Below are positions 6,273-10,513 of a stretch of 21,195 bases of DNA, one piece after another. This stretch comes from a virus (lineage: Duplodnaviria; Heunggongvirae; Uroviricota; Caudoviricetes). Made by a program: the position numbers and the translations under genes. The notes beneath the pieces were generated by a model, which worked only from the letters and a program-made list of their open reading frames with translations, was not told the origin of the DNA and made no database searches. Each line of letters opens with the position of its first letter. Position 1 is the first letter of the stretch. Location of the stretch: IMG/VR virus record IMGVR_UViG_2534681940_000040. One strand, 5' to 3'.

Positions 6273-9095
6273 ATGACGGCAGAGTACATCAGGGACTGGC
6301 AACAACCGCGCCACGCAGTGGGGCGTGAAGGAACGGGGATCCCCGCTCCTGAATCCGCGCTTTCCTCCTGGCTGGATGCCTACCGGGTAGAGAACGAGCG
6401 CCGCCAGGAAATGGCTGATGCGGCGTTCTCCGCAACGCCGCTGGGCAACCTGATTAATAAAAGCCTGGACGCACAGGAAAAACAGGACAAAACCATCACA
6501 CTGGCAGGAGACGCCAGAAAACAGGCACGCGGTGCGGTGGATGAAGCCATGGCCTCGCTGCGCCTGCTGCCGTCCTATCTGCGCGATCCGCTTATTCGCC
6601 ACCTCTCCTTCCTGCGCAAAAAACAGGAAGCCGATCGTCAGAAAGGCAAAAAGAGCTGGCAGGCTGAACGCTACGCGCGCGGAAACCTGCGCAAAATATT
6701 CGAACGTCTGGAGCGCACCGATCACCGCTGGCTGACACAGGGTTATCGCTCCCTTGCCGGACGCGAACGCCTGGACGATTTGCTTTACCTGCCGCAGCTC
6801 AACAAACACCAGATACAGACGCTGGCCACCATGACGGCGGCGATGTTCAGCAGCACCTTCGAAAAACTCTGCGATGGCTTTGGCGCGACCGATGGCGAAC
6901 TGACCATGGATGTAACGCTGAAGGCGTATCAGATGCTGGCCCGCATGGCGTTACACCTGCACGCCATGCCTCCACATTATGACGCACTGACAACAGACAA
7001 AGACCGGAGGAACGAACCGGACACGGAGCTGCTGCCGGGCGCAATCCTTCGCCTGACCTGTGCGGAATGGTGGAAACGCAAACTGTGGCTGTTACGTTGC
7101 GAGTGGAGAGAAGAACAACTCCGCGCCGCCTGTCTGGTTTCCAGAAAAACATCGCCCTATCTGAGCCAGGACGCGTTAAGCGAGTTTCGCGCACAGCGCG
7201 AGAAAACACGCGATTTCCTGAAAAGTTTCATGCTGGAAAACGAAGACGGGTTCACGATTGATCTCGAGACAGTGTATTACGCGGGAGTAAGTAACCCGGT
7301 TCACCGTAAGGCAGAAATGATGGCCACCATGAAGGGGCTGGAACTTCTGGCCGAAGCCCGTGGCGACAAAGCGGTGTTTCTGACTGTCACCTGCCCGTCA
7401 AAATACCACGCTACAACAGAGAACGGTCATCCGAATCCCAAATGGAACGGGGCCACCATGCGCGACTCCAGCGATTACCTGGTTAACACGTTTTTTGCGG
7501 CGGTCCGCAAGAAACTGAACCGCGACGGCCTGCGCTGGTATGGCATCCGCACGGTGGAGCCTCACCATGACGGCACCGTGCACTGGCATATGATGGTCTT
7601 TGCTCATCCGGAAGAAATCGACACCATTGTGTCCCACACCCGCGATATTGCCATTCAGGAAGATCGTCACGAGCTGGGCGATGATATTACTCCGCGCTTT
7701 AAGGCGGAGTATGTCGACGGCTCAAAAGGCACGCCAACCAGCTACATCGCCACCTACATCGGAAAAAACCTGGACAGCCGCGCCGTGGATGGCATCGACC
7801 CGAAAACAGGCAAACCACGCGTTGACCACGAAACCGGAAAATCAATGACCGAGAGCGTGGAACGCGCCATTGGCTGGGCGCGCCTTCACCGGGTCCGCCA
7901 GTTCCAGTTCTTTGGCATCCCCTCCCGTCAGGTGTGGCGTGAACTGCGTCGCCTTGCCAGCCAGATGGCACGCAACCCGGAAGGCCCGCAACGGCTGAAG
8001 GATGACGCAATGGATGCGGTTCTTGCTGCCGCTGATGCCGGATGTTTTACCACCTACATTGAGAAACAGGGAGGCGTACTTGTTCCACGCAAGGACTACC
8101 TGATTCGCACCGCCTACGACCTCGCAGATGAGCTGAACGATTACGGCGAACAGAGCGTACAGATTTACGGGATCTGGTCACCACTCATCGGGGAATCCTC
8201 CCGTGTGTGCACGCACCCGGATAACTGGAAGCTGGTAAGACGTAAACCGGGAGTAGAAGACAGCGCCCGCGAAAATGGTTTTGACCTTCAGGGCGGCCCT
8301 GCCGCCCCTTGGACTCGTGGCAATAACTGTCCCCGTGTACAGGAAACGGACAACAACGGGACAGAACAGCCGGAAGAACGGCCAGCACCGTGGCCGCAGC
8401 TTCCTGACGGCGTTGACGTGAACGAATGGATGCGCTCACTGAAACGGCACGAACGCCGGGCGCTGATGCGTTCGCTTCGTGACAAACAGGCAAAAAACAG
8501 CAGTGATGAAATGCAGAGCTGGACACAGAGCCGCAAACAGCAGCGGCCTTTGCCTGATAACCACGAATTACTCGCTAAAGAATGGCGGGAGTCTGCTGAA
8601 TCTCTCGGCCTGCATATCGGTGAACAACAGATGCAGCACCTGTTACGGGGCGGCAGTCTGTACGTTGACGGCAGCATCATTGCACCGCAGGGATTTGAAA
8701 TTGTACGCAAACCGGATACCCGCCCGGACAGCCGAATCACGCAGCTCTGGCAGCGCCTGAGCCGTAATCATGGCGTAAGCAGCACGGAGATCCGCCATAA
8801 CCCGGTCGCCAGCTATCTGGCACAGCTGGGGGCATCAGACCCTGAAGCCGCCGCACGCCTGGCATCCACACTTCAGCAGGACCAGAACACCATGAAAACA
8901 CCCGTTACCGTGCTTTCTGACATGCTGCGCGCCATCCGCGACGCAGAGCACGCACAGAGAATCAGTGAAACCACTGAACGCGCCAGCCGCAAAGCAGACC
9001 TGCTGCGGGGTGGCCTGACCAGTGGAAACAAAAAACAGACAGAAACGGGACTCACAAATCCCGTAAATGAGCAAAAAACGCGCCGCGATATATGA
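6273..9095 (+). CDS. A: gpA-like rolling-circle replication initiator endonuclease (P2 A family)
   Basis: 940-aa ORF. Motifs VEPHHDGTVHWHMMVF and YIATYIGKNLD match the P2 gpA HUH/tyrosine region as recalled. Longer than P2 gpA (761 aa) through a C-terminal extension. Confidence 0.9.
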   Translation: MTAEYIRDWQQPRHAVGREGTGIPAPESALSSWLDAYRVENERRQEMADAAFSATPLGNLINKSLDAQEKQDKTITLAGDARKQARGAVDEAMASLRLLPSYLRDPLIRHLSFLRKKQEADRQKGKKSWQAERYARGNLRKIFERLERTDHRWLTQGYRSLAGRERLDDLLYLPQLNKHQIQTLATMTAAMFSSTFEKLCDGFGATDGELTMDVTLKAYQMLARMALHLHAMPPHYDALTTDKDRRNEPDTELLPGAILRLTCAEWWKRKLWLLRCEWREEQLRAACLVSRKTSPYLSQDALSEFRAQREKTRDFLKSFMLENEDGFTIDLETVYYAGVSNPVHRKAEMMATMKGLELLAEARGDKAVFLTVTCPSKYHATTENGHPNPKWNGATMRDSSDYLVNTFFAAVRKKLNRDGLRWYGIRTVEPHHDGTVHWHMMVFAHPEEIDTIVSHTRDIAIQEDRHELGDDITPRFKAEYVDGSKGTPTSYIATYIGKNLDSRAVDGIDPKTGKPRVDHETGKSMTESVERAIGWARLHRVRQFQFFGIPSRQVWRELRRLASQMARNPEGPQRLKDDAMDAVLAAADAGCFTTYIEKQGGVLVPRKDYLIRTAYDLADELNDYGEQSVQIYGIWSPLIGESSRVCTHPDNWKLVRRKPGVEDSARENGFDLQGGPAAPWTRGNNCPRVQETDNNGTEQPEERPAPWPQLPDGVDVNEWMRSLKRHERRALMRSLRDKQAKNSSDEMQSWTQSRKQQRPLPDNHELLAKEWRESAESLGLHIGEQQMQHLLRGGSLYVDGSIIAPQGFEIVRKPDTRPDSRITQLWQRLSRNHGVSSTEIRHNPVASYLAQLGASDPEAAARLASTLQQDQNTMKTPVTVLSDMLRAIRDAEHAQRISETTERASRKADLLRGGLTSGNKKQTETGLTNPVNEQKTRRDI

Positions 9096-9171
9096 AGCGC
9101 GCACAAAACAGGCAAAAGCGGGATTTAAAAATCCTGTAACCGATTAATTAATCAACATAAGGAAAAGCGAC

Positions 9172-10131
9172 ATGAAAATTTGTATCGACGACGGCTCCAC
9201 CAACATCAAGCTGGCATGGACTGAGAACGGCGAACGCCGCAACGCCATCAGCCCGAACAGCTTCAAGTCGGAATGGTCTGCGCCATTCGGTGGCACGCAG
9301 CCCGCGAACTACATGCTTGATGGCGTGCGCTATGGTTTTGATCCGGTCAGCGATCGCTTTGTCCAGACGACCGACACGCAATACCAGTACAGCGATGTGA
9401 ATGTAATTGCCATTCATCACGCGCTGGTCAAATCAGGCATCACACCACAGGAAGTGGATGTGGTTGTCACCCTGCCACTGAGCGAGTATTTCGATACAAA
9501 CGCACAGCCGGACATGGCCAACATCAACCGCAAAAAAGCGAACGTCATGCGCCCGGTGGAGTACCAGAACGGCGAAGCATTCACTATCCGTAACGTACGG
9601 GTTATGCCTGAATCCATTCCTGCTGGCTTTAAGGCACTGGCTGACATGAGTCCGTTTGAATCCCTGCTGATTGTGGATTTGGGCGGAACCACGCTGGATG
9701 TGGCAAAGGTTCAGGGGCAACTGGCAGGTATCAGCCAGGTGTTTTGCGATCCACACGTAGGCGTTTCTCTGATGGCCGATGCCGTACTGTCGGTGATGGC
9801 CACTAACGGTATGCGCACCAGTCACCACATCGCCAATACCATTATCGAACATCGCCATGATGAAGCCTGGCTGCGCCAGCACATCCACAATGACGCGCAT
9901 TACGCCAGCCTGATGGCGGTTATTCGTGAAAAGGAAGAAACACTGAAACAACGCGTGATCCGCGCGCTGGCGGTTTTTTCGGGTTACGGGCGGGTGATGG
10001 TTGTCGGTGGCGGGGCGGAGATTGTGGCAACCGCTATCCGCGAAGCCTGCGGAGTTAATGCGACTTTCATCGCGGACGGGGTGCCACAGTTTGCTCTGGT
10101 TAATGGGTTGTACGCAATGAACAAGGAGTAA
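9172..10131 (+). CDS. parM: ParM/StbA-family actin-like ATPase
   Basis: 319-aa ORF with actin-fold motifs: ICIDDGSTNIKLAW (phosphate 1), LIVDLGGTTLDV (phosphate 2), VMVVGGGAEIVA (adenosine). Clear similarity to plasmid R1 ParM as recalled. SD AAGGAAAAG upstream. Confidence 0.9.
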   Translation: MKICIDDGSTNIKLAWTENGERRNAISPNSFKSEWSAPFGGTQPANYMLDGVRYGFDPVSDRFVQTTDTQYQYSDVNVIAIHHALVKSGITPQEVDVVVTLPLSEYFDTNAQPDMANINRKKANVMRPVEYQNGEAFTIRNVRVMPESIPAGFKALADMSPFESLLIVDLGGTTLDVAKVQGQLAGISQVFCDPHVGVSLMADAVLSVMATNGMRTSHHIANTIIEHRHDEAWLRQHIHNDAHYASLMAVIREKEETLKQRVIRALAVFSGYGRVMVVGGGAEIVATAIREACGVNATFIADGVPQFALVNGLYAMNKE

Positions 10132-10135
10132 ACCA

Positions 10136-10513
10136 ATGACGACACCAACCAGACGGATAAGTTTCTATCTGAAGCCCGCCGCCGTCAAGAGTGAACAGGA
10201 GGCGTGCAATTACCTCGATAGCCTGCCAGCCTCCGAACGCAGCCGCGCGCAACGCGCGGCCTTTCTGGCTGGGCTAGCACTCATAAAGCGCAACCCAGCA
10301 TTTGCCTACTGGATGGCCGAATGGCCAGAGGACAACCTCCCCTTCAATACCGTTAGCATCAAGGAAACATACCAGGCTAATCAGCCTAGCGGAGTTGAAT
10401 GCAATTTTTATAAAATAAAAAGAATATTCAGACCTTATTCCCAGAATAATCTGATAATTGTATGTGAACTAATAAAATACATTGTCATACGAGTCACCTG
10501 TACTCCCTGTTGA
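10136..10513 (+). CDS. parR: ParR-like centromere-binding protein, 3' end disrupted
   Basis: N-terminal RRISFYLKPAAV...LDSLPASERSRAQRAAFLAGLALI matches the R1 ParR ribbon-helix-helix region as recalled. The C-terminus runs through an AT-rich segment and ends inside IS3-derived sequence from about 10482. Confidence 0.7.
   Translation: MTTPTRRISFYLKPAAVKSEQEACNYLDSLPASERSRAQRAAFLAGLALIKRNPAFAYWMAEWPEDNLPFNTVSIKETYQANQPSGVECNFYKIKRIFRPYSQNNLIIVCELIKYIVIRVTCTPC

Follow-up and report, generated by a model that had tools for sequence, protein, structure and literature searches.

The window analysed here is a stretch of 21,195 nt (IMG/VR record IMGVR_UViG_2534681940_000040), and it is a defective P2-like prophage of the P88-like, or Xuanwuvirus, type from Escherichia coli O157:H7. 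Directly after the phage replication gene A, whose product is referred to as gpA, the window carries parM and parR, a plasmid-type partition gene pair, and two related repeats lie upstream of parM. A preliminary description of this DNA had located the pair immediately behind gene A, where phage P2 has its tin/old genes, and this placement agrees with the gpA–gpQ locus of P2-like prophages (PMC9122126).

The predicted ParM matched Pfam StbA_N over profile positions 1–157 of 158 (E 1.8e-82) and the Pfam ParM C-terminal domain over positions 1–159 of 159 (E 3.5e-69). It also aligned end to end with ParM of plasmid R1 (PDB 1mwk; E 7e-93) at 46.8% identity. The nucleotide-binding motifs DDGSTNIK (phosphate-1), DLGGTTLD (phosphate-2) and GGGAE (adenosine) are all present in the protein and are unchanged across its homologues. 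Together with the domain matches, these invariant motifs bear out the earlier claim of a complete ParM. The ratio of nonsynonymous to synonymous substitution rates (dN/dS) of parM among E. coli-type alleles is 0.01–0.17, and the gene is under strong purifying selection. RefSeq names the gene product "plasmid segregation protein ParM", and PHROGs 691 and 2515, the ParM and ParR families, are both labelled "partition protein".

The parR gene starts 4 bp past the parM stop codon and is preceded by an AAGGAG Shine-Dalgarno sequence. The match to Plasmid_stab_B, the family of StbB (= ParR), covers residues 6–75 and thus agrees with the earlier assignment of a ParR-like ribbon-helix-helix protein at this position; the match to ParR of pB171 (2jd3) is weak (E 0.012). 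In RefSeq, the product is called a "plasmid partitioning/stability family protein". Beyond the N-terminal ribbon-helix-helix domain, an alignment of phage and plasmid ParRs showed a single conserved feature, a C-terminal motif [KR]xN[AI]xx[LMF]F that also occurs in R1-type proteins (...EETKKNAMKLIN) and that reads ..KKNAMKLIN in R1 ParR itself. The motif was present in 73/73 full-length ParRs from 76 IMG/VR loci. This conserved, unstructured tail is described as binding a hydrophobic pocket of ParM (review PMC5016525).

The tail is a hallmark of ParMRC systems, and it is present in the relatives and missing from the window ParR. The N-terminal StbB domain is intact, and the reading frame is lost near codon 95, where a 1-bp deletion has shortened a run of adenines to five residues in the window, against six in the relatives. 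Because of this deletion, the open reading frame as it stands (10136–10513) reads through AT-rich DNA into an insertion sequence (IS) element. When the sixth adenine is restored, the translation is 104 amino acids long and ends in ...NFYKIKKNIQTLFPE, with the native stop codon at 10447–10449. The last ten residues are swapped for unrelated ones in the window, and the tail ...KKNIQTLFPE is thereby lost. Of 551 complete E. coli genomes that have this parR allele, not one is identical to the window over this stretch, and all four IMG/VR copies of the allele (4/4) have the A6 run; the deletion is therefore either private to this sequence or a homopolymer sequencing error.

Two other explanations of the altered C-terminus were rejected. 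The IS element did not truncate ParR, as homology to intact phages reaches position 10481, 32 bp past the native stop codon, and the AT-rich stretch is neither foreign nor IS-derived, as this parR allele natively ends with it and has it in the 551 complete genomes. The preliminary description was right that the reading frame runs into AT-rich and IS sequence; the cause is the frameshift and not the IS element. As read from the sequence, the window ParR should keep DNA binding but lose coupling to ParM. Since the frameshift removes the conserved tail, the window copy is probably inactive for partition, as had been suspected.

The alleles of parR differ sharply. The O157/569R5 type and the P88 type are the same in the first 18 codons, which include the ribbon-helix-helix strand, and in the last few residues. 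Between these two regions they mostly differ, although the adjoining parM genes are 97–99% identical. Either recombination has made the gene a mosaic, or the adaptor is under diversifying selection.

Upstream of parM, a repeat search identified two 38-nt direct repeats that are 79% identical and lie 73 bp apart, start to start (Table 1). Each harbors a dyad of the form CGGGA-N8-TCC(C/T)G, so that the repeat units are two dyads and not tandem iterons. The preliminary description had noted two related elements at these positions; they proved to be parts of the longer direct repeats, and the spacing of 71 bp given for them is in fact 73 bp. A degenerate 19-mer of the repeats has two sites in the window, both at this location, with 0.06 expected by chance. 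The first repeat copy and its dyad fall in the final 22 codons of gene A, which are a candidate for acting as coding sequence and protein-binding site at once.

Table 1. Features of the window, with positions in the 21,195-nt sequence. A dot marks a feature listed with no strand.
Feature	Position	Strand	Basis and remarks
Integrase	1-1002	minus	
Replication gene A (940 aa, Phage_GPA endonuclease)	6273..9095	+	Pfam PF05840, E 2.4e-131
38-nt direct repeat copy 1, CAAAAAACAGACAGAAACGGGACTCACAAATCCCGTAA	9029..9066	.	Repeat search
Dyad 1, CGGGACTCACAAATCCCG (YGGG-N10-CCCR)	9046..9063	.	Regex scan; 126 bp before parM ATG
38-nt direct repeat copy 2, CACAAAACAGGCAAAAGCGGGATTTAAAAATCCTGTAA	9102..9139	.	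Repeat search; A-parM intergenic
Dyad 2, CGGGATTTAAAAATCCTG	9119..9136	.	53 bp before parM ATG; right arm TCCTG, not TCCCG
Conserved leader, ATTAATTAATCAAC...AAGGA	9144..9171	+	Candidate -10 region and Shine-Dalgarno of parM
parM, complete 319-aa actin-like segregation ATPase, R1/StbA type	9172..10131	+	Pfam and R1 ParM homology
parR, native extent (104 aa in relatives)	10136..10449	+	Pfam PF10784 Plasmid_stab_B, E 1.2e-28, profile 1-70/72
A5 run, A6 in relatives	10417..10421	+	1-bp deletion; alignment with TW14359, 569R5, P88
3'-truncated IS629 (IS3 family) fragment	10482..11538	minus	rve and HTH_Tnp_1 domains; terminal inverted repeat 11525-11538

The architecture of the two dyads is conserved. 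Phage P88 has the same pair as a 42-nt repeat with 73-bp spacing, and relative to parM the dyads lie at -126/-53 in E. coli-type loci, at -129/-56 in Hafnia and at -132/-60 in Plesiomonas. The spacing is therefore 72–73 bp, or about seven helical turns, in three diverged lineages. Across 76 E. coli-type IMG/VR loci, the CGGGA/TCCCG arms are near-invariant, with variation in the bases at the center. The TCCTG arm of dyad 2 was considered as a sign of O157-specific decay and this was ruled out, as the variant occurs in 22/76 unrelated loci and is a common polymorphism. For comparison, the YGGG-N10-CCCR pattern has a background of 0.042 per kb in 755 kb of plasmid-type loci, and no such dyad was found within 300 bp upstream of parM in any of the plasmid loci examined. 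On the basis of this architecture, shared by three lineages, the phage repeats are a good candidate for a compact parC or operator, in keeping with the earlier suggestion. A block TTAATCAA...AAGG between the repeats and parM is also kept in the E. coli types, Hafnia and Plesiomonas. Judging from this conserved AT-rich block, a weak candidate promoter of parM probably has a -35 region that overlaps dyad 2.

The repeats could instead have nothing to do with a centromere. They might form RNA hairpins or signals for processing where the gene A message ends, or bind a different protein of phage or host, with ParR acting elsewhere or serving as a repressor only. The E. coli dyads do fold at about -9 kcal/mol with z-scores of -3.3 and -2.4, only two copies are present, and repeat copy 1 is inside the coding sequence of gene A. 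However, the corresponding positions in Hafnia and Plesiomonas yield stems of 3–4 bp with 10-nt loops and weak z-scores, while the 4-bp arms, the N10 center and the 72–73-bp distance are still kept. In Hafnia an extra open reading frame parts gene A from parM, and the dyads remain with parM. Conserved arms around variable centers are furthermore the pattern of a protein-binding dyad, and no T-run terminator was found on the plus strand. We consider it unlikely that the repeats act at the RNA level or serve another protein.

The parMR pair is a known and widespread feature of P88-like P2-type phages and not a one-off acquisition. Intact parM-parR is annotated in the isolated phages P88, Citrobacter phiSM, 569R5 (vB_EcoM-569R5) and Chuche, and P88, phiSM and 569R5 are viable isolates with intact copies. 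In a phage collection of 50,697 records, R1-type ParM was present only in P88-like phages and in the P1-like phage D6. Outside E. coli, ParMs at 54–62% identity were located in P2-like prophages of Hafnia, Plesiomonas, Serratia and Enterobacter, with gene A on one side and the portal gene on the other, and the Plesiomonas locus has integrase, repressor and Cox genes at its upstream end. The search of related P2-like prophages proposed in the preliminary description returned parMR with dyads in the E. coli types, Hafnia and Plesiomonas. A scan of IMG/VR gave only E. coli-type copies at 98–100% identity, which provide population data and no new divergent lineages.

Among 68 loci compared, every ParM with at least 54% identity adjoins a gpA homolog and every ParM at 53% or below does not. 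A phylogeny of ParM had also been proposed, and in a neighbor-joining tree the phage ParMs are monophyletic (63/100 bootstraps) and are nested among enterobacterial plasmid ParMs including that of R1. Across the same loci, gpA has diverged to 29–55% identity, and the association between parMR and gpA is therefore old. The parMR pair is directly next to gene A, and variable cargo, such as a KAP NTPase, an EamA transporter or hypothetical proteins, comes after it. With this constant position, parMR acts as a conserved gene set and not as a recent moron.

Several further ParM loci were encountered during the survey. A plasmid of Apirhabdus apintestini (CP138907.1, 10001–10869) encodes a ParM whose N-terminal 135 residues are 62% identical to the phage ParM and whose remainder is 43% identical. 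It was ruled out as a further phage-type locus because P2-like genes are absent nearby and the ParM is a mosaic, which suggests that parM genes of the phage and plasmid types have recombined at the level of domains. Contigs labelled Vagococcus, Streptomyces morookaense, Clostridiales and Lachnospiraceae contained high-identity E. coli-type or R1-type parMR, one of them in a P88-like prophage with ParM at 97% identity, and these are most likely enterobacterial contamination of the assemblies. Finally, a separate ParM clade at 46–47% identity was found in a complete Klebsiella chromosome and in large Klebsiella and Raoultella scaffolds. Neither gpA nor the portal gene occurs within 10 kb of these genes, which may belong to another type of integrated element with type II partition.

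Taking the observed gene identities, the conservation across the clade, the purifying selection on parM, the repeat architecture and the frameshift as a starting point, we propose that parMR and its upstream dyads are probably a type II (ParMRC-like) segregation module of a clade of P2-like temperate phages, acting transiently on free phage circles. The clade comprises the P88-like phages (Xuanwuvirus) of E. coli and relatives in other Enterobacterales and Plesiomonas. ParR would bind both YGGG-N10-CCCR dyads through its ribbon-helix-helix domain and form a small centromere/operator complex, probably repressing the operon as well. The conserved C-terminal tail of ParR would then capture the ends of ParM filaments, and these filaments would push or position extrachromosomal circular phage genomes. 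Infection, excision or gpA-driven rolling-circle replication could each give rise to such circles. The role would be transient, as in the SrpMRC and AlpAC systems compared below, and would not amount to stable plasmid lysogeny. The module of the window would be a disabled copy, in which ParM and the DNA-binding domain of ParR are intact and the last ten ParR residues are replaced, in a prophage whose head, packaging, lysis and baseplate genes were lost through an IS629-associated deletion.

Several points weigh against a segregation role. A phage that replicates to high copy number by a rolling circle and then lyses its host has no obvious need for partition, and no experiment on a P2-like parMR module was found in the literature. 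Two dyads provide four half-sites, compared with ten iterons in R1 and four 20-bp repeats in pSK41, and the site may be a mere operator. The Serratia and Enterobacter phages differ in having a 19–20-nt inverted repeat with a 28-nt spacer, in which a GG(G)AAC half-site is kept. A promoter scan found no consensus sigma-70 promoter upstream of parM, and the bootstrap value of the phage clade (63%) is moderate. As for the window itself, a 1-bp deletion in a homopolymer could be a sequencing error, in which case this copy would encode a normal ParR.

A stronger form of the proposal is that the intact P88-like ParMRC is a working actin spindle on the excised or newly injected circular genome, supporting either a heritable episomal carrier state or the positioning of rolling-circle replication, by way of an unusually small centromere whose two dyads share one helical face. 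We regard this form as doubtful. If it were true, an integrative tailed phage of Gram-negative bacteria would for the first time be shown to have an actin-based system of segregation or positioning. Few prophages of E. coli are as common as the P2-like ones, and such a system would sit in roughly a quarter of them. A module active on excised circles would extend to tailed phages the idea from SXT/R391 elements that integrative elements require partition while transiently free, and a working module would offer a very small natural centromere for study.

The plasmid type of the module also invites the reading that P2-like phages persist as low-copy plasmids in episomal lysogeny and that the O157 element descends from a plasmid-like replicon, as the preliminary description had offered as one of two alternatives. 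The same suggestion has been published (Rousset et al. 2022, PMC9122126). A complete P88-like genome of 34,461 bp (NZ_CP148288.1, circular) is deposited as a "plasmid" and has a Hok/Gef gene, a few further plasmid records contain the module, and the P1-like phage-plasmid D6 has a StbA-type ParM. However, the region of the parR allele is chromosomal at 553/554 places in complete E. coli genomes, and the integrase region of the "plasmid" phage NZ_CP148288.1 is chromosomal at 311/311 places in other strains, so that stable plasmid lysogeny is not the normal state. Elements retrieved with the relevant end all encode integrase, Cox and repressor. The only replication function recognized is the gpA rolling-circle endonuclease, and no theta-type plasmid replicon was seen. 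The O157 element is likewise integrated, beside yecA, and has an integrase, whereas a phage-plasmid would be an extrachromosomal prophage with a plasmid replicon.

The NZ_CP148288.1 sequence comes from an E. coli isolate from a cat and contains integrase, Cox and parMR in addition to the Hok/Gef toxin gene. A circular contig of this kind may simply be the phage in its replicative form after excision; the other possible reading is a genuine episome. Taken together, little sign of a plasmid-like ancestor or lifestyle was found. We judge plasmid maintenance quite improbable, and the other of the two earlier alternatives, a phage role for the actin system, is the better supported.

It is very improbable that the module is an accessory exclusion or defence system, for instance one that interferes with the partition of incoming plasmids or phages in the manner of incompatibility: it lies in the documented gpA–gpQ defence hotspot (PMC9122126), and the divergence of ParR after codon 18 beside nearly identical parM genes is a pattern known from conflict genes, but PADLOC returned no match for it, parMR is fixed beside gene A and kept over deep divergence under purifying selection in a core-like manner rather than swapped as hotspot cargo of a known defence family would be, and with the dyad type missing upstream of all plasmid parM genes examined no plasmid target is evident.

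Apart from the module, the window shows a prophage in decay. Strain TW14359 has a copy next to yecA that shares 99.9% identity with the window, and the same holds for many other O157 genomes. Rightward of the integrase gene lie the repressor gene and a long plus-strand early operon leading to gene A, parM and parR. Gene A is named replication endonuclease in TW14359 and in phage annotations. The A protein of P2 has about 760 amino acids, and gpA of the window, with 940, is longer.

Past parR, an IS629 fragment on the minus strand is followed immediately by a tail-fibre assembly gene, which adjoins the left end of the fragment, and by tail genes. Phage homology ends at 10481 and IS629 matches begin at 10482; RefSeq remarks on the fragment that it is "incomplete, missing C-terminus". 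By comparison with the gene order of the intact NZ_CP148288.1, the fragment marks a large deletion that took out the cargo of the hotspot together with the late genes, from the portal gene to the tail-fibre region inclusive. Intact relatives have such cargo as well as genes for portal, terminase, capsid, lysis and baseplate, all of which are absent here, and the O157 prophage cannot make virions. A second, full-length IS629 (1310 bp) is present at 18743–20052. The tail tape-measure gene (about 13345–16184, minus strand) is annotated as frameshifted in the near-identical TW14359 copy, where late control gene D is also partial beside IS30, and both are further signs of prophage decay.

The module is already annotated in RefSeq and PHROGs, and both its existence and the speculation on plasmid maintenance are in print in Rousset et al. 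(2022). The message of the window itself is modest, as it concerns a known and annotated module in a crippled prophage with a parR that is frameshifted or mis-sequenced. What the analysis adds is the extension of the clade beyond E. coli, the conservation of the two-dyad architecture, the tail motif common to phage and plasmid ParRs, and the frameshift of the window copy. Rousset et al. (2022, PMC9122126) reported that about a quarter of the P2-like prophages of E. coli have a StbA plus Plasmid_stab_B cassette in the gpA–gpQ interval, and they speculated on plasmid maintenance. Their cassette is the same module as the one described here, and their treatment was one of cataloguing, with no centromere analysis, non-E. 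coli clade, ParR tail or functional test of the cassette. In the literature found, theirs is the only paper to comment on the module, and other genuine mentions were at the level of annotation. A 2026 follow-up paper does not mention the module.

Among known systems, the module is close to R1/NR1 ParMRC (StbA/StbB) and pB171 par1. Both have parC (a candidate site in the phages), parM and parR in this order, the ParMs are homologous over their full length, and the StbB-family ribbon-helix-helix N-terminus of ParR is common to both, as is the C-terminal tail in the phage relatives. In the retrieved loci, R1-type parC consists of two clusters of 11-bp iterons with CCC cores in A-tracts that flank the promoter, and the phage repeats similarly form two blocks upstream of parM with GGG/CCC cores in A-rich DNA. 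The two differ in that the phage module is on an integrative rolling-circle P2-like phage and not on a plasmid, and in that its candidate centromere has two inverted-repeat dyads 73 bp apart whereas R1 has 2 x 5 direct 11-bp iterons. In addition, the phage ParMs form a separate clade, the ParR of E. coli phages is short (103–104 amino acids) and without the middle helical segment of plasmid ParRs, and the window ParR is frameshifted. The ParM of D6 (47.8% identity) is annotated as a StbA-type plasmid stability protein. D6 is P1-like and is a plasmid prophage, and in this it differs from the integrative elements described here.

The SrpMRC system of SXT/R391 elements, for which stabilization and binding in electrophoretic mobility shift assays have been demonstrated and which is proposed to act in the excised state only (Carraro et al. 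2015, PMC4489591), resembles the phage module as a type II partition system on a normally integrated element that replicates by a rolling circle when excised. Its centromere is small, like the phage candidate site, and has four short repeats, in direct and inverted orientation, that precede the ParM gene. It differs in that SrpR has no recognizable ParR homology and SrpM is distant from R1 ParM, whereas the phage pair clearly belongs to the R1/StbAB family. Its carrier is an integrative and conjugative element and not a tailed phage, and the corresponding activity of the phage module is a prediction. Finally, the AlpAC/alpS system of the Corynebacterium glutamicum prophage CGP3 combines an actin-like protein, a DNA-binding adaptor and specific sites for efficient replication and transport of viral DNA (PMC4446434, PMC5539076). 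Although it involves another actin-like family, another adaptor and a Gram-positive host, this system provides a precedent for a phage rather than a plasmid role.

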